IMG/VR virus record: IMGVR_UViG_2713896908_000011
Coordinates: 1-32,977 of that record
Source of the DNA: a virus
Lineage: Duplodnaviria > Heunggongvirae > Uroviricota > Caudoviricetes
Direction: 5' to 3' (one strand)
DNA: 32,977 nucleotides
This document shows, in pieces, positions 5,969-18,136 of the stretch. The position numbers and the translations under genes are program-made. Below the pieces are notes generated by a model. The model searched no databases, was not told the origin of the DNA, and saw only the letters and a program-made list of their open reading frames with translations. The first letter of the stretch is position 1. Every line of letters begins with the position of its first letter.

Positions 5969-6284
5969 TGAGTTTTACCGGCACTTCTTCTGCACTGGTT
6001 CCGGCATCTGCCCAGACAACCCCGACCAGCGGATCAGAGCCGCTGTTAGTCAGCTGAACTTTTCCGGACTTCAGATAAACCTTCTTACCCGTTTTCATGT
6101 CATCCGTTTTCAGTTTAGGCAGGATAAACACACCTTCGGTCATGCCGTCGCCTGTTTCACCCTGTGGAATATCGGTCAGCGCCACCGCAAAAACATCACC
6201 CACCTGCACCAGATCTCCGCTGCTGATGGCAGCACTGGCAACAATCGCCACCGTTTTTCCTTCTTCTACAAAATTCTTTGCCAT
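5961..6284 (-). CDS. small head protein, DUF2190-like (putative capsid decoration/cement or head completion)
   Basis: Start set at the internal Met (MAKNFVEEGKTVAIVASAAISSGDLVQVGDVF...) preceded by GGAGACAG. Lies between the capsid gene and the connector. Family assignment is from memory. Confidence 0.55.
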   Translation of the reverse strand: MAKNFVEEGKTVAIVASAAISSGDLVQVGDVFAVALTDIPQGETGDGMTEGVFILPKLKTDDMKTGKKVYLKSGKVQLTNSGSDPLVGVVWADAGTSAEEVPVKLNV

Positions 6285-6326
6285 AACTGTCTCCGCACAG
6301 CCCCGTTCAGGGGCTGATTTCAGGTA

Positions 6327-6370: not shown

Positions 6371-8329
6371 TTACGCCGTACATTTCACCAGACCGCGGTG
6401 ATCAACTGGCGCGACACCGGCGTCAATACGCACTTTCGTTGTCACGCCATCCACACTGAAGCCCTCCATCTGATCAATATATGGCGTATCCACACCGTTG
6501 AGATAAGCCACTTCAATCGTATCGGAGCCTTTGGACGCAGCCAGGTAGAAGGTGGTCTGGCTGTTATCATCAAGACGAGGCTCTGCAATAACGGTCGCAA
6601 AATCTTTCACCGGGTTAATAATACCGGCGTTAATGTCAGCCCCCTTGACACTTGAGGAGCGAATGACCTGGTTAGCAACAGACTCCATCGCCGTCGGTAC
6701 CAGTACGAACGCAGGACGAATATTCAGATGACGCTCCCCCTCTTTCTGAACGCGCATCAACTGGCGGGCTTTATCCAGCGATGCCACGTCCATTGCAGCG
6801 CTCTCCAGTACGTTTGCATGTTTCGCTTTATCGAACAGACTTACATTATCTGTGGAGATTTTCGGGTTAGACGTCAGAATGGCATAAACCAGATCGGCAA
6901 TGGTGGATTTCGCCGCACGGCCCAGTTTCATCGGGACATCGGTCAGCATATTCAGATCATCATTGATAATGGCCTGACGGGTGATACTGAACAGCTCGCC
7001 ATAGGTCGCCAGTGCAATAGTGGCCTGTTTATCTCCGGTGGTGACGTATTTATATTCCGCCCCTTCACGCACCTGACGCAGAGCACTGAAGCCCCCCATA
7101 CCCACACGATGGGCAATTTTAAAATCAGACAACTGACCTTTCCGCGTCCACTGTTCATAGGTTTCAGGAGCATCTTCCCAGCCCTGCAGAATGGCTTTGT
7201 TCGCAACATCCAGCAGAATATTACCGAAGTCAGACGTACTGTGTGTGAACGCCGCACCGACCATCTGCATCGGGTTATAACCGGAAACCCCAATACCCCG
7301 TTCAGTCAGTGACATACGGGCATATTCACGCAGGGTCATCCCGTTGTAGACATTATCACGTTCGGTTTTTTCAAATCCGGCACGCGCCATCAGCGCCTGG
7401 CGGATCCCGTCCCCCACAAAATTACCGTTACCGGCATAAATATGAGCCGGGGTATTTTTATTGGATGGCGTGGACTCGCGCCCCATCTCGTTCAACAGCT
7501 TTTCGCGGGCCTGCTCCAGCGAACATTCAGGATCGGCAAGACACTGAGCCTGCAGCGTCTGATAACGCCCGCCAAACATGGCAAACAGATCATTAATACC
7601 GTTTACACGCGCTTTTTGCTCTGCCAGTACCTGCGCACGGATACTGTTTTCATCCACCACGGGTGCTGCTGCCTGCACTGGCGTCCGGGAGGCTGCAGGT
7701 TCATCATCCTGTACGCGTGGAGCACTGTTGCGTGGCGGAGTAATCATGTTTCGAATGGATTCCGGCATCTTTTTAAATTCCTCTGTACGTTTTGACTGAA
7801 TACATGCCATTGCCTTAACGGCTGGCGTTACCTGATCAGCAAATCCATGTGCCAGACATTCGGCACCGGACATCCAGGTCTCATCCGCCAGCATGGCAGC
7901 AATTTCATCGGTGGTTTTCCCGGTTTTCTGTGCATAAGCGGGTAACAGAACCGCCTCAACTTTATCGAGCAGGTCGGCATAGGTGCGCATGTCCTCCGCA
8001 TCACCGCCCGTAAAGCCAAATGGTTTATGAATCATCATGAAAGTGTTTTCCGGCATAATGACCGGGTTTCCCACCATCGCAATGACCGACGCCATTGACG
8101 CCGCCACACCGTCGACATAAACGGTAATGGACGCACCATGTGTTTTCAGTGCATTAAAAATGGCGATGCCTTCAAAGACATCGCCACCCGGTGAATTAAT
8201 ATGAAGATTAATGTGGGTGATATCGCCCAGTGCATTCAGATCACTGATAAACTGCTTCGCTGTAACACCCCAGAAACCAATCTCGTCATAAATATAAATA
8301 TCCGCGTCACTCTGGTGACCAGCCTGCAT
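6371..8329 (-). CDS. prohead protease (ClpP/S14-like) fused to scaffold-like linker and HK97-fold major capsid protein
   Basis: Start set at internal Met (MQAGHQSDADIYIYDEIGFWG...) 14 nt past the portal stop. N-terminal part has a ClpP-like signature (INSPGGDV, GVAASMAS, MMIHKP); C-terminal ~350 aa look like an HK97-type capsid protein. The track ORF (to 8590) overlaps the portal gene and is probably over-extended. Confidence 0.85.
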   Translation of the reverse strand: MQAGHQSDADIYIYDEIGFWGVTAKQFISDLNALGDITHINLHINSPGGDVFEGIAIFNALKTHGASITVYVDGVAASMASVIAMVGNPVIMPENTFMMIHKPFGFTGGDAEDMRTYADLLDKVEAVLLPAYAQKTGKTTDEIAAMLADETWMSGAECLAHGFADQVTPAVKAMACIQSKRTEEFKKMPESIRNMITPPRNSAPRVQDDEPAASRTPVQAAAPVVDENSIRAQVLAEQKARVNGINDLFAMFGGRYQTLQAQCLADPECSLEQAREKLLNEMGRESTPSNKNTPAHIYAGNGNFVGDGIRQALMARAGFEKTERDNVYNGMTLREYARMSLTERGIGVSGYNPMQMVGAAFTHSTSDFGNILLDVANKAILQGWEDAPETYEQWTRKGQLSDFKIAHRVGMGGFSALRQVREGAEYKYVTTGDKQATIALATYGELFSITRQAIINDDLNMLTDVPMKLGRAAKSTIADLVYAILTSNPKISTDNVSLFDKAKHANVLESAAMDVASLDKARQLMRVQKEGERHLNIRPAFVLVPTAMESVANQVIRSSSVKGADINAGIINPVKDFATVIAEPRLDDNSQTTFYLAASKGSDTIEVAYLNGVDTPYIDQMEGFSVDGVTTKVRIDAGVAPVDHRGLVKCTA

Positions 8330-13212: not shown

Positions 13213-13767
13213 TCAGGCTTGAATCCCCTTATCGAATCCCGGTAATAAAAACTGTCCCTGTCTCTCCAGGCGTTTCAGCTTTGCAAGCAATTGAGGTTTT
13301 TTCGTTCTCCCCCAGCGATTGAGCAGACGGCCTGACATGCTGGCGACATCCTTCTCTTTCATGTACTCCAGCATTACGGCATTTCTCTCTTCTTCAAATT
13401 GACGATGACCAACCTGAAGCATGGCGTACATCCAGTTAAATGCGTTGATATAAGCAATTTTGATACGCATTGCTTCTTTTTTGGTGTAGGACATAACCAA
13501 AAGCATCACCCCATCCTTGCGGAGACGGTAGAATTTTTGCGGCTTACCATTCTGTAACTCATTGTTTTTATAGCAAAGCTCAAAGTTGAGCTTTGTATCA
13601 AACTCAGGAGGGCAAGCTTCTATGGTTCGTTCAATGTCACGAACTACGTTCTTCGGCAGCTTTCCAAATGCTTTTGCCACCATAAAAGAATCTGTAACCG
13701 GATCGTTGTTTGCCACAAAAATCAGATCTCGGAAATCGATGCCGTTAACGATAGTTGGATAATTCAT
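13213..13767 (-). CDS. Rha-family phage regulatory protein
   Basis: N-terminal pattern ...VTDSFMVAKAFGKLPKNVVRDIERTI...LNFE...KDGVMLLVMSYTKKEAMRIKIAYINAFNWM fits the Rha/pRha family signature as I recall it. Confidence 0.7.
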   Translation of the reverse strand: MNYPTIVNGIDFRDLIFVANNDPVTDSFMVAKAFGKLPKNVVRDIERTIEACPPEFDTKLNFELCYKNNELQNGKPQKFYRLRKDGVMLLVMSYTKKEAMRIKIAYINAFNWMYAMLQVGHRQFEEERNAVMLEYMKEKDVASMSGRLLNRWGRTKKPQLLAKLKRLERQGQFLLPGFDKGIQA

Positions 13768-13970: not shown

Positions 13971-14420
13971 TTATTTCAGGCATTGCGTCCTGATGTACTC
14001 CTGCAGGTAGTTAACCTGCGCGGTTATCCTGTCGATTCCACTTCGGAGACGGTAATAATTGAGTTCAGCATCTGCTGTAAGTCTTGAGCTTTCTCCATCG
14101 CCCATGCTGCTGGCTCCGGTCGTTGACTTTGCACAGGTGGCGGTGACTTGCAGGCGCTTACGCCCAGCAGAAACATCAGCACGTAGACTTTCGATAGTCG
14201 CGTTAGCATCAGCAAGCTCCTTTGTGTATCTGGCATCGAGTTCTGCTACATCACGTTGACGCTTCTGCATGTCAGCGATGATGTACGTGGCTTTATCGCG
14301 CTGTTCTTTATAGGTAATGGCGTTATCACGGTAATGATTAACAGCCCATGACAGACAGACGATGATGCAGATAACCAGAGTGGAGATAATCGCGGTTACT
14401 CTGCTCATTTCTGCCCCCAC
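13971..14420 (-). CDS. Rz: i-spanin Rz
   Basis: 149 aa with an N-terminal TM helix ([18 protein letters not shown]) then a coiled-coil periplasmic domain, immediately after the endolysin, with an embedded lipoprotein ORF in another frame. Confidence 0.85.
14024..14209 (-). CDS. Rz1: o-spanin Rz1 (lipoprotein embedded within Rz)
   Basis: ORF nested in Rz in a different frame, with lipobox LLGVSAC followed by a proline-rich stretch ([13 protein letters not shown]), as in lambda Rz1. Start set at the internal Met ([20 protein letters not shown]...); the exact start is uncertain. Confidence 0.75.
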
Positions 14421-14902
14421 AAACAGACTTCACGCTCAATCTCACGGCGAGTCATCAGGCCTTTCCATTGCTTACCGCCAGCATATGTCCAGCGACGTAA
14501 CTGGTCACATGCCCCTTTGATATCACCCTGGTTTATTTTGCGAAGAAGAGTCGATGTTCTGAAATTGCCTGCACCCACATTATAGACGAACGAGTAAAGA
14601 GCGCCGCGCGTTGTTTCCGGTATATCAACTTTGATGTACGGGTTAATTTGCCTGGCGACCGTGGCAAGGTCTTTATTCAGGAGGGCTTTGCATTCTGCTT
14701 CGGTATACGTTTTACCGAGCATAATGTCTTTTCCGGTGTGCCCGTAACATACAGTCCATACGCCAACGATATCTTTATATGGTATGTAGCTGACACCTTC
14801 CAGACCATCGTCACCACTCGGACCAGTGATGAGCACAGACGCTATGGCAACAGCCCCACCACCAATAGCAGCTGCAACAGCCTTGCGTAATGATGGCGAC
14901 AT
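14405..14902 (-). CDS. R: SAR endolysin (phage 21 R21-type lysozyme)
   Basis: N-terminal Gly/Ala-rich weakly hydrophobic segment [20 protein letters not shown] typical of a signal-anchor-release domain, followed by a T4-lysozyme-like domain. Directly follows a pinholin gene (ATGA overlap at 14902). Confidence 0.85.
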
Positions 14903-15117
14903 TATTCACCTCTCGCAGCCTTACGCTTATCTTCTTTAATCTTGAAATAAAGGTTTGTCAGGTACGTCAGCAAGCCAAATACCAAGCTCCCCAGCACACC
15001 AATTGCAGCCCACTGTGACGGAGTTACTTTATCGAGTAACTGCAGTGCCCAGAAGCCGGCATTACCTGCCGATGTGCCATAGGCGACACCTGTTGTTAAC
15101 TTATCCATTGATTTCAT
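14902..15117 (-). CDS. S: pinholin (phage 21 S21-like) with dual-start motif
   Basis: 71-aa sequence [31 protein letters not shown]...[22 protein letters not shown] is nearly identical to S21 as I recall it. Met1 and Met4 give the antiholin/holin dual start; two TM segments. Confidence 0.9.
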
Positions 15118-15338
15118 ATCCTCACCCCGATGTACACGGATGGTGCAATATGTTTGAAAAGATCGGAGTCTACGGGTTATTTTTTACAGCAAACGTTGTT
15201 CTCAACGACGCTCAAAAAATAGAAGCTTAAAATAATGCGGTTAAATATTTTAAAAGAAAAACCATCTATTAAATAATAATGCGGGATATATTTTTCTATT
15301 TAGTGTACTGTATACGGCCATTTATACAGGAAAAGCCT

Positions 15339-15509
15339 ATGTCAGAACGTAAAGACTCAAAATCACGCCGTAATTATCTCGTAAAATGTTCCTGCCCAAA
15401 CTGTACCCAAGAATCAGAACACAGTTTTTCTAGAGTACAAAAAGGTGCCCTTTTGATCTGCCCTCATTGCAACAAAGTATTCCAAACAAATCTTAAAGCT
15501 GTTGCCTGA
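15339..15509 (+). CDS. small zinc-ribbon protein (CxxC...CxxC), function unknown
   Basis: Start set at the internal ATG preceded by AGGAAAAG (MSERKDSKSRRNYLVKCSCPNCTQ...LICPHCNKVF...). Two CxxC pairs; opposite strand to the flanking late genes. The track ORF starts at 15279. Confidence 0.5.
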   Translation: MSERKDSKSRRNYLVKCSCPNCTQESEHSFSRVQKGALLICPHCNKVFQTNLKAVA

Positions 15510-15568
15510 GTGTTTTGATTACTTACAAAGAGTTTTTATATTTTAATAATATATTTAAATCAGATAAT

Positions 15569-15593
15569 AAAAAACCCGCCTGCGCGGGTTTGA
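15569..15593 (-). terminator. rho-independent terminator downstream of the cold-shock gene (possibly bidirectional)
   Basis: Hairpin CCCGC-CTGC-GCGGG flanked by an A-run on the plus side, so on the minus transcript it is followed by UUUUUUAUU. Confidence 0.6.
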
Positions 15594-15790
15594 GATTGTG
15601 GTGCTTTTTGTGGTAGTTACCCACTTACGCACTTTGTATTGCTATGCCAGCAGTTAGCTTCTACTGTAAAACTATTCATGCAGCAAACCTGCACTTCACC
15701 ACAAAATGGGATTCAATACCCACAACTCTATCTGCATCTCTACTCAGGCATCAGCCTTCTTCGTTATCGTATACAGACAAGCTATGAATT

Positions 15791-16006
15791 TTAATCAGTA
15801 ATAATGACATTTGCTGCTGCAGGACCTTTAGCACCACTCTCTACAGAGAAGGTAACCTTTTGGCCTTCAAATAAGGTTCGATAATTATCATTCTGAATTG
15901 CAGAAAAATGCACAAACACATCTTTACTACCATCAACAGGAGAAATAAAGCCAAAACCTTTATCAGCGTTAAACCATTTTACTAAACCAGTCATTTTATT
16001 TGACAT
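15791..16006 (-). CDS. cspB: cold-shock protein, CspA family (CspB-like)
   Basis: [53 protein letters not shown]... carries the RNP1 (KGFGFI) and RNP2 (VFVHF) motifs and matches E. coli CspB (a Qin prophage gene) as I recall it. AAGGAA Shine-Dalgarno is present. Confidence 0.9.
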
Positions 16007-16170
16007 TCTACATTCCTTAACTTGAGCCTTTCGGCATAAATGATTTGTATAACAGAAACGACTTCGTACTTAATTGGAGAGACTCAAAGAAGGAATAAGT
16101 GAATAACACCTGAAATGAGAACTGCTTTAGTAAACTACTTCGTATATCGTCTGTTCTTCAAACCGACGCT
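16007..16170 (-). promoter_or_regulatory. long 5' leader of the csp gene with cold-box-like element
   Basis: CspA-family mRNAs have ~160-nt structured leaders. The minus-strand sequence here contains GAAGAACAGACGAUAUACGAAG, reminiscent of the cspA cold box (UGACGUACAGA). Boundaries are approximate. Confidence 0.4.
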
Positions 16171-16247
16171 GTCATTAACGCATAGTTGTACACCTGGAAG
16201 CAATGTTTATTTTAGACATCCAGCCATCTCCCCATTTAAAACACAAA

Positions 16248-16267
16248 AACCCGCTCATTAGCGGGTT
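16248..16267 (-). terminator. candidate tR'-like terminator downstream of PR'
   Basis: Perfect hairpin AACCCGCT-CATT-AGCGGGTT flanked by A- and T-runs; on the minus transcript it is followed by UUUUUGUGUUUU. About 50 nt downstream of the predicted PR' start. Confidence 0.55.
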
Positions 16268-16314
16268 TTCTACTTTTTCTCAACACCGGACATACAAAGC
16301 CCATTGTTGAGAAA

Positions 16315-16343
16315 ATTTTATCCATGTTTTTTGAAAAATGCAA
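16315..16343 (-). promoter_or_regulatory. candidate late promoter PR' (sigma70 -35/-10) just downstream of Q
   Basis: Minus strand reads TTGCAT - 17 nt - TAAAAT (-35 at plus 16338..16343, -10 at plus 16315..16320), 30 nt downstream of the Q stop, the canonical PR'/qut position in lambdoid phages. Confidence 0.5.
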
Positions 16344-16374
16344 ACATCATGTCGATATCTTCGGCGAAAATTAT

Positions 16375-17127
16375 TTATCTTGTCACTTTTCTCAACAGTG
16401 CTTCTGCATATGCTTCTTCCTGCCAGCACTTTGTAACCAGTTTATCAATAACATCAGCATACCCCTTGTACCACTGATAATCCGTCAGGTCCGGTACCAG
16501 TTTCTGGACATGATGCCGCGCCAGTGTGGTTGGTAAACGGCTAAACCGATTTCCATTGCAACGCCCACAAATCTTATAAACCGGCGTGCCATGAAGCCGG
16601 GTTCTTTTTTCATCCAGGACAATACCTTTACCCTTACACCCTCTGCACGCTGTGCTGACTTCTCCCTTACCATGGCAATGCTGACATAGTTCCTTCACCC
16701 ACTCTTCCTTGATAACAGATTCCCCGCTTCTGGAGTGTTTCACCACTTCGCGCAATACATTATGAAATCCAGTACCAGCACAATGCTCACAGCGAGCCTT
16801 ACTTGCCGCAGACCTGGAATAATCAGCAAAGGCAAAATTCACAAGGTAAGGGATGATCTGTAACCGGGTTTCTTCACTCAATTTATTCAATGTCGGGTTA
16901 TCCAGTGCCATCGCGTAATTGAGCAGACCTTCGATCGCAAACTGAGGATCCTGAACACCAACTTTTGCCAGGAATAAGGCAAAACCCAGTGGTGCTTTCG
17001 ACTGCACCATCCCCTGCGCAGCCATCACATCTGTAATTGTTAAACCACCCGAGCCTGTCGCCGGTGCGTCATCACTCAATTTTGGAGATTTTGGGGAGTA
17101 ATATTTTGGTAAGGCTTCAAGGTTCAT
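16375..17127 (-). CDS. Q: late-gene antitermination protein Q (phage 21/82-type family)
   Basis: 250 aa with multiple CxxC pairs (CEHCAGTG, CQHCHGKG, CRGCKGKG, CGRCNG) typical of zinc-binding Q proteins; positioned between the early/replication genes and the lysis genes. Confidence 0.8.
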   Translation of the reverse strand: MNLEALPKYYSPKSPKLSDDAPATGSGGLTITDVMAAQGMVQSKAPLGFALFLAKVGVQDPQFAIEGLLNYAMALDNPTLNKLSEETRLQIIPYLVNFAFADYSRSAASKARCEHCAGTGFHNVLREVVKHSRSGESVIKEEWVKELCQHCHGKGEVSTACRGCKGKGIVLDEKRTRLHGTPVYKICGRCNGNRFSRLPTTLARHHVQKLVPDLTDYQWYKGYADVIDKLVTKCWQEEAYAEALLRKVTR

Positions 17128-17140
17128 GCTCGTTCTCCAC

Positions 17141-18136
17141 TTACGCCAGTACGCCTATTGCCAGCGCACGATCGATAAAACGAAATATCAGCTCCAGCTG
17201 GGAGCCATACCTCTCTTCAAATGCCACGGTATCCGCATGCAGCTCGTCGTGATGCTTTCTGCACAAAGGCAACACAAAGAGGTCATGCGCTTTTGTACCC
17301 ATTCCACCCTGACCGTGACCTATCAGGTGGTGGGGATCATCAGCTGGCTTTCCACAACATGCACACGGCTGTGTCTTAACCCAGCGCGTGTATTTTTCAT
17401 TAACCCAGCGGCGACGTTTTGGGCGTAACATAAAAGACTCCGGCGACTCCGGATCCACTTTCAGCGCCAGCACCTTTTTCGCTTTATCCTGGATGATGCT
17501 GGTGGCAGGAACCGAAGGCACAAGGTCACTTTCCCGGGCGACAGACGGCACAACAGGCTTTGGTAATCTCAGTGCCTTACGGGCTGCACTTTCCGGTAAG
17601 GCATCCGCCAGGTCATTACGAATCAGCCACCAGCACAGTTCCGGCATTGTCACAACGTGACTGTCATCAAAACCGAGATCCCGACGCACAACAGACAACA
17701 CCCAGCGGGCACAGTTATCCGTTGCCATTGATTCCAGCCGTTCCGTGAACTGATCGCGCAGCTGGTTATCGCAGTGCCAGCACAGACGGATTGCGCCCGG
17801 AGCGTGTCGCATTGTGGTCATGTTCTCGCTGTGCCAGTCGGAATGAGGCCACTGACAGCCCTTTTCACGAAGTAACCAGCTTTCAAGACATTCCACTCCA
17901 CCCGCACGACGAATAACTGCCTCATTACGGAACACGGCCCGAACGGCAGGATCATCCGCCAGCGGTTGTGATGCCGCCGGAACGGCACCACTGGCGAAAG
18001 ATGAATAACGTTCCGGCTCAGGCTCCAGCAGGACACGCCCCTGCATAAACAGGGGCATCAGCTCTGAACCTGGCCTGAACAATACGATCCCCATACGCGG
18101 GGCAATTTCAGGGGTCAGTAGCGCTCTCACGGTCAC
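17141..18136 (-). CDS. DUF968-domain protein (YdfU-like) with HNH-like C-terminus
   Basis: 331 aa; C-terminal ...CACCGKPADDPHHLIGHGQGGMGTKAHD...LCRKHHDELH... looks HNH/zinc-finger-like. Occupies the nin-region position upstream of Q as ydfU does in Qin (recalled). Confidence 0.6.
   Translation of the reverse strand: MTVRALLTPEIAPRMGIVLFRPGSELMPLFMQGRVLLEPEPERYSSFASGAVPAASQPLADDPAVRAVFRNEAVIRRAGGVECLESWLLREKGCQWPHSDWHSENMTTMRHAPGAIRLCWHCDNQLRDQFTERLESMATDNCARWVLSVVRRDLGFDDSHVVTMPELCWWLIRNDLADALPESAARKALRLPKPVVPSVARESDLVPSVPATSIIQDKAKKVLALKVDPESPESFMLRPKRRRWVNEKYTRWVKTQPCACCGKPADDPHHLIGHGQGGMGTKAHDLFVLPLCRKHHDELHADTVAFEERYGSQLELIFRFIDRALAIGVLA

Follow-up and report, generated by a model that had tools for sequence, protein, structure and literature searches.

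Escherichia coli has four cold-inducible CspA paralogues; the cold-shock gene cspB, found on Qin-type prophages, has been recognised as one of them since the 1990s and is annotated by automatic pipelines. In K-12 the gene is cold-inducible and is preceded by a 160 nt leader containing a cold box (PMC6719143), and the part of PMC3704898 relayed by PMC9800685 describes cspB mRNA as going up at every temperature drop. The leaders of cspA, cspB and cspG have been reviewed as RNAs whose temperature-dependent conformation sets both Rho-dependent attenuation and the access of ribosomes (PMC12360218), and on which the Csp proteins themselves feed back (PMC12360218, reviewing Delaleau et al. 2024 and Zhang et al. 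2018). That the csp genes of Qin were horizontally acquired has been put forward as a general statement (PMC6379469); literature searches yielded only general remarks of this kind, and no study that treats the cspB of phages as a moron or as a Q-dependent gene. The Shiga toxin (Stx) phages provide a further point of reference, as they carry stx in a slot between the gene for the late antiterminator Q and the lysis genes (PMC8065619).

The window, by which we mean the whole 32,977 nt stretch of phage DNA that was analysed, carries a cold-shock gene in the late region of a prophage that looks complete within it, from the tail genes to the integrase. This gene is very probably a functional orthologue of cspB, arranged as a self-contained moron within a lambdoid late operon and controlled by cold, and Q-dependent read-through should reach it in addition. 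The elements assigned to the cspB unit are listed below.

16174-16219, minus strand: cspB promoter, from alignment with the K-12 cspB, cspA, cspG and cspI promoters
16219-16204, minus strand: AT-rich UP-like stretch, part of the cspB promoter
16203-16198, minus strand: -35 element TTGCTT of the cspB promoter, with an 18 bp spacer to the -10 element
16179-16174, minus strand: -10 element GTTAAT of the cspB promoter, preceded by a TGC extended -10 motif
16007-16166, minus strand: 160 nt 5' untranslated leader of cspB, from the Rfam RF01766 match, with its start placed by alignment to cspA
16160-16150, minus strand: cold box TGAAGAACAGA, identical to that of K-12 cspB and aligning with those of cspA and cspG
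16035-16023, minus strand: upstream box GCCGAAAGGCTCA, in which the columns GCC.AA.GGC are invariant in cspA, cspB, cspG and cspI
16018-16013, minus strand: Shine-Dalgarno sequence AAGGAA, from alignment with the K-12 csp genes
15791-16006, minus strand: cspB coding sequence, an ATG-to-TAA open reading frame of 71 aa with RNP1 and RNP2 intact
15974-15994, minus strand: downstream-box region ATGACTGGTTTAGTAAAATGG, within the cspB coding sequence
15592-15790, minus strand: 3' untranslated spacer of 199 nt, poorly conserved
15566-15591, minus strand: cspB intrinsic terminator (hairpin 15591-15572), from a terminator scan and folding

The 71 aa product has a predicted size of ~7.7 kDa and a single cold-shock domain, residues 5-68 matching the CSD profile (Pfam PF00313) with 108.9 bits against a cut-off of 27. 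It also matches the NCBIfam CspA subfamily (143.3 bits, cut-off 130) more strongly than the CspC, CspD and CspE families; these three were compared through NCBIfam scores only, and the other paralogues by pairwise identity to their K-12 versions. It is identical to K-12 CspB at 70 of 71 residues (98.6%), with lower identities to CspA (77.5%), CspG (76.1%), CspI (67.6%), CspH (45.1%) and CspF (40.8%). The sole difference from K-12 CspB, I55V, is a conservative substitution, and exchanges of Ile and Val are among the types described in natural CspB variants (PMC6719143). At the nucleotide level, five of the 216 positions in the coding sequence are changed relative to K-12, four of them synonymously. 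The RNA-binding motifs RNP1 (KGFGFI, residues 16-21) and RNP2 (VFVHF, residues 30-34) are present in the translation in the form defined in Table 1 of PMC6719143. The nearest solved structures by sequence are the E. coli CspA chains 2l15 and 1mjc (E = 1e-34 to 4e-34), and similarity to these along the full length makes a five-stranded OB-fold beta-barrel very likely.

Given these identity scores, the family matches and the intact RNP1 and RNP2 motifs, the gene is assigned as cspB itself, the orthologue of the Qin-type gene of K-12, rather than as something merely CspB-like. The first-pass annotation of this DNA had described a complete CspA-family gene encoding a CspB-like protein, to be checked by alignment with CspB, CspF and CspI, and had named sequence divergence towards a pseudogene as grounds for abandoning the idea. 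The intact frame agrees with the first description, the alignment makes the second more precise, and no such divergence was found. That annotation also marked out a long leader with a cold-box-like sequence, within a span (15791-16170) almost equal to that of the thermosensor match described below, and the leader and its cold box are indeed there. It did not recognise that the locus is the Qin-type cspB already annotated elsewhere.

Rfam family RF01766 (the cspA thermoregulator) matched positions 16167-15775 on the minus strand with 155.9 bits (E = 6e-41), twice the gathering score of 78, and did so over the full length of the model (positions 1-428 of 428), covering both leader and coding region. 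It was the sole Rfam family over threshold, with one match, in all 32,977 bases. From alignment with the 5' end of cspA mRNA we infer that transcription of cspB begins at approximately 16166. In the same comparison of csp genes the cspA cold box, TGACGTACAGA, is aligned opposite the cold box of the window. The first 12 bases of the downstream box were defined from the csp alignment (ATGACTGGTTTA, with AAAATGACTGG as the run that is invariant in the cold-inducible csp genes), and the remainder of the region was read straight from the window sequence.

[quoted passage not shown] A generic sigma-70 promoter scan of the window did not report it, because its -10 hexamer deviates from the consensus. 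Among the five loci compared, the spacer between the -35 and -10 elements measures 18 bp in two (the window and the prophage of E. coli SF-468) and 17 bp in K-12 and the phages 2H10 and Tritos, a difference that could make the promoter of the window weaker. By its sequence elements, the unit is placed in the cold-inducible class of csp genes (cspA, cspB, cspG and cspI) that have an RF01766 thermosensor leader.

No other part of the region is as well conserved as the leader, which shares 98.8% identity with those of K-12 Qin, 2H10 and Tritos, 158 of 160 positions being the same in K-12; in comparisons with the same three elements, identity was 97-98% for the cspB coding sequence, 91-95% for Q, ~92% for the holin gene and 85-90% for other intergenic sequence. 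That the leader is conserved above all of its neighbouring segments points to selection acting on this non-coding RNA.

Downstream of the coding sequence, local alignments with K-12, 2H10 and Tritos cover only 55-57% of the 3' spacer, and alignment with K-12 reveals that 82 bp of the 3' region found there is missing from the window. This 82 bp segment is present in K-12 (at approximately 6206-6292 of the locus), 2H10 and Tritos, and is missing from the window (at approximately 15705-15710 on the minus strand) and from SF-468; within it are a good Shine-Dalgarno sequence (AAGGAGG) and an 11 codon open reading frame (MKQWLAYLAKS) that is unannotated in NC_000913.3. The cspB terminator beyond the spacer has an 8 bp stem with five G-C pairs, followed by TTTTTTATTATC, and a folding energy of -13.3 kcal/mol (z = -4.3). 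The strong downstream terminator named in the first-pass annotation exists, but lies outside the span given there, ~200 nt past the stop codon. It is common to cspB and the convergent gene ynfU, having the tail TTTTTTATTATC on the minus strand and TTTGAGATT on the plus strand, and is the stronger on the minus strand. A permissive Rfam search of positions 14800-16500 returned only terminator-driven matches far under the gathering scores (E = 0.3-0.9); as all were sub-threshold, further RNA elements in the 199 nt 3' region or in the short transcript from the late promoter were rejected.

The features that surround the cspB unit are those of a lambdoid late region.

16375-17127, minus strand: late antiterminator gene Q, 250 aa (Pfam PF03589 Antiterm, 179.9 bits)
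16315-16344, minus strand: candidate late promoter PR', read as TTTGCA-18-TAAAAT or TTGCAT-17-TAAAAT, from a promoter scan
16303-16308, minus strand: -10-like element AACAAT at the start of the PR' transcript, from alignment with lambda and K-12 Qin
16235-16270, minus strand: tR'-like intrinsic terminator (hairpin 16270-16245), with an 11 bp stem followed by TTTTTGTGTTTT
15127-16240, no strand assigned: AT-rich exchangeable cargo block of 1.1 kb, holding cspB and ynfU
15339-15509, plus strand: ynfU, encoding a small zinc-knuckle protein of 56 aa (Pfam YnfU, 107.7 bits)
14902-15117, minus strand: phage 21-type holin gene (Pfam PF04971, 116.1 bits), the first late gene past the cargo
14405-14902, minus strand: lysozyme gene, adjoining the holin gene
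13971-14420, minus strand: Rz, of the lysis cassette
14024-14236, minus strand: Rz1-like lipoprotein open reading frame, out of frame inside Rz, proline-rich and with the lipobox LLGVSAC

The Q protein is 94% identical to YdfT/QuuQ of K-12, of which it is the orthologue, and belongs to the lambda Q family, with an identity of 35% to lambda Q (E = 7e-43). Relative to lambda Q it has a 48 aa Cys-rich insertion; as in K-12 QuuQ, this contains extra CxxC motifs and a sub-threshold DnaJ_CXXCXGXG match. The 140 nt following Q align with the PR' region of lambda, with the -10 hexamer TAAAAT opposite lambda TAAATT and the whole stretch reading TAAAAT-TTTCTC-AACAAT-GGG, versus TAAATT-TGACTC-AACGAT-GGG in lambda. 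The initially transcribed region of lambda PR' has a -10-like element with a role in pausing. In the window, AACAAT is found where lambda and K-12 Qin both read AACGAT, and is a candidate for the sigma-70-dependent pause and Q-loading element. The hairpin of the tR'-like terminator has a folding energy of -17.4 kcal/mol (z = -4.9) and would end a short PR' transcript of ~70 nt in the absence of Q. Only ~15 nt separate its U-tract from the start of the cspB promoter, and lacking the cspF gene found here in K-12, this variant appears to be the most compact form of the tR'-cspB promoter arrangement.

Within the lysis cassette, the open reading frame inside Rz is typical of an Rz1 o-spanin by its sequence. 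The hydrophobic N-terminus of the lysozyme suggests a SAR endolysin, which fits with the phage 21-type holin. An antirepressor-like gene with Rha and ORF11CD3 domains (13213-13767, minus strand), placed between the terminase genes and the lysis cassette, may represent another accessory insertion of the late region.

The region of approximately 15000-16500 has a GC content of 34-40%, versus 46-58% in its flanks. Prophage L009, from E. coli PS2Canimalfeces3, has a backbone 95-99% identical to the window over most of its length; this homology breaks off at 15126, immediately ahead of where the holin gene starts, and restarts at 16241, at tR'. In the set of complete E. coli genomes, the best record covered no more than 69% of positions 8000-32977. 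In the corresponding slot of L009 (15156-17415 in that element), a DNA methyltransferase gene and two hypothetical genes replace cspB and ynfU. L009 thus documents directly how the cargo has been exchanged, the breakpoints falling at tR' and in the ribosome-binding site of the holin gene, and cspB and ynfU appear to form an exchangeable moron block downstream of tR'. Owing to the shift in composition, the swap in L009 and the gene having its own promoter and terminator, cspB is counted as a phage moron: its promoter (assigned by homology), its predicted terminator, its variable presence and its deviant GC content are all properties of such genes. The earlier proposals that the gene is a moron, that it lies between Q and the lysis genes, and that this is the slot used for cargo by Stx phages, between Q, PR' and tR' on one side and the holin gene on the other (PMC8065619), are all borne out by this arrangement, in which Q (16375-17127) and the holin, lysozyme and Rz genes (13971-15117) are on the minus strand together with cspB.

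The second cargo gene, ynfU, which is on the opposite strand, had been overlooked in the first-pass annotation. Its product also matches the NCBIfam zinc_YnfU_fam family (79.8 bits), and the YnfU protein has been detected in K-12 (bioRxiv 10.1101/511675). The gene points towards cspB and runs antisense to the late transcript; annotations of K-12 Qin and SF-468 have it at the corresponding position. As the T-tail of the shared terminator on the plus strand is weak, ynfU transcripts might extend antisense into cspB; conversely, late transcription would run antisense through ynfU and might silence it in lytic growth.

The cspB promoter and leader region was found in 1,631 of 5,426 complete E. coli genomes (~30%), and the RefSeq label was cspB for every one among the matches listed. 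The temperate phages 2H10, Tritos, PhiR42_1, HannyBb and PhiR63_1 also hold cspB in the same slot. Synteny, with Q upstream and ynfU and the holin gene downstream, is shared with K-12 Qin and SF-468, and the order Q-cspB-holin with 2H10 and Tritos. In 2H10 (NC_049950) and Tritos (OV696610), cspB is annotated as a cold-shock protein; both of these phages also carry cspI past the lysis genes, whereas the window shows no evident cspI homologue, in line with its single RF01766 match.

Comparison with Qin-like prophages, another check proposed at the outset, identifies the same locus in K-12. The cspB of MG1655 Qin (b1557) has the same promoter boxes, terminator, strand and neighbours, namely Q (ydfT/quuQ), ynfU and the holin gene. 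However, the order in K-12 is Q-cspF-cspB-ynfU-holin, with a 564 bp cspF/ynfS module between tR' and the cspB promoter (at 6816-7380 of the K-12 locus) flanked by ATGGGG repeats, whereas the window has one copy of ATGGGG and no module (16225-16240, minus strand). The short repeat suggests deletion or insertion of the cspF module through microhomology. Tritos retains a 303 bp remnant of the module, and 2H10 has it in full. The two prophages also differ in that Qin is defective, being annotated as 'cryptic prophage Qin', while that of the window looks complete, and in the lysis cassette, where the window lacks ydfR and has a different lysozyme and Rz.

The cspF-less junction was found in four of the 5,426 complete E. 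coli genomes, SF-468 and three others, and the same pattern is seen in Escherichia sp. E1V33 (one GTDB species representative) and four IMG/VR contigs. The complete genomes with this junction also have the 18 bp promoter spacer. In the SF-468 prophage (NZ_CP012625.1), cspB, its leader, 3' region and terminator, and ynfU are 100% identical to the window and the junction is the same, but homology is limited to 14150-17165, at 96.6% identity, and the remainder is unrelated. This confinement implies that the lysis-ynfU-cspB-Q module is a mosaic cassette carried on different backbones. Its right edge is sharp and falls at 17165, a little 5' of where Q begins. SF-468, Escherichia sp. E1V33 and three of the four IMG/VR contigs have this boundary in common, the rest of these elements being unrelated. 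The locus is the already known and annotated Qin-type cspB, with its rare cspF-less arrangement a minor variant and the absence of the cspF module its only unusual feature.

With only two of the 160 leader positions and one conservative residue differing from K-12, the allele of the window would be expected, with high confidence, to behave as does K-12 cspB. The cold induction, the mechanism involving the thermosensor and Rho, and the chaperone function described here are carried over from experiments in K-12. In a lysogen, cspB would be transcribed from its own cspA-type promoter, and at 37 °C the 160 nt leader would keep the yield down by folding unfavourably, by making the mRNA short-lived and by letting Rho attenuate transcription inside it. 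Upon a shift to cold, the leader would refold, such that the mRNA is stabilised, the ribosome-binding site is exposed, the Rho loading site is masked and CspB accumulates. The protein would then melt RNA secondary structure alongside CspA, CspG and CspI, until the accumulated Csp proteins later switch cspB off via the leader and the cold box. The transcript would end at the terminator at 15591-15572.

A different situation may apply following prophage induction. Polymerase modified by lambda Q is resistant to both intrinsic and Rho-dependent terminators. Since cspB lies on the late strand downstream of PR' and tR', Q-modified polymerase should also transcribe it on induction: starting at PR', it would run past tR' and override both the attenuator in the leader of cspB and the terminator behind the gene on its way to the lysis genes, and cspB would thereby also become part of the late transcript. 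This expectation follows from the geometry of the locus and the known properties of lambda Q. At 37 °C, translation from the Q-driven transcript should still be limited by the fold of the leader.

Such read-through raises the question of whom cspB serves. It is unlikely that the gene is there mainly for the phage, with CspB made from the late transcript acting as an RNA chaperone or antiterminator that aids the synthesis or translation of late mRNA, especially during lytic growth in the cold, although this can coexist with an explanation based on benefit to the host. The position of cspB on the late strand, directly 3' of PR' and tR', would suit such a role, as would its retention, often together with cspI, in the late region of the inducible or plaque-forming phages 2H10, Tritos and PhiR42_1; furthermore, NCBIfam names CspA-family proteins as RNA chaperones/antiterminators, and Q-modified polymerase resists terminators of both kinds. 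However, the complete and strongly conserved host-type cold-shock promoter and leader would be superfluous were expression purely Q-driven, and the lack of cspB in L009, a prophage on the same backbone, indicates that the gene is dispensable for the phage. Quite improbable, too, is a dual-input arrangement, specific to cold in the lysogen, in which the resistance of Q-modified polymerase to terminators and to Rho would allow it to bypass the leader switch at any temperature, with the resulting CspB raising the burst size or the expression of late genes, most of all at temperatures under 25 °C.

That cspB is instead a decaying relic, the unexpressed and non-functional remnant of a Qin-like prophage, is highly implausible. 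K-12 Qin is itself a defective prophage, and the variant in the window has lost two pieces, the cspF module and, in the 3' region, 82 bp. Against this, the open reading frame is intact, with a single conservative substitution and mostly synonymous changes, the leader is better conserved than every neighbouring segment, the regulatory boxes and terminator are all in place, and within the window the prophage around the gene seems complete. Scarcely credible is the idea of a CSD effector in anti-phage defence or superinfection exclusion, like those of some retrons: moron slots frequently carry defence genes, and the protein does weakly resemble the retron Se72 effector family of NCBIfam, but the score of 55.5 bits is below the cut-off of 82 for that family and far below that obtained with the CspA subfamily, no reverse transcriptase or msr/msd-like partner is found nearby, and a characterised cold-shock protein of the housekeeping type matches the sequence at 98.6% identity. 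A retron or defence function was rejected on the basis of this sub-cut-off score and the absence of partner genes. The preferred reading remains that of a functional, cold-controlled cspB moron, with additional read-through expected from PR'.

The locus, now dissected in full, illustrates how a moron in the Shiga toxin slot can bring along an environmental sensor of its own, and places part of the E. coli cold-shock regulon among mobile phage cargo, in roughly three of every ten complete genomes. If Q-driven expression does matter to the phage, cold-shock RNA chaperones would be tied to late-gene expression.

Among known systems, E. coli cspA has the same layout as the cspB of the window, in its promoter, its leader of ~160 nt, its cold, upstream and downstream boxes and its CSD, but it is a chromosomal core gene whereas cspB is prophage cargo. 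Etchegaray et al. reportedly observed, in 1996, that cspB is induced over a narrower and lower range of temperature than cspA. In Stx phages, stx likewise occupies the late strand, with Q/PR'/tR' before it and the lysis cassette after it; unlike stx, the cargo in the window is a stress-response RNA chaperone without a known virulence role, and would be subject to temperature-responsive control of its own.
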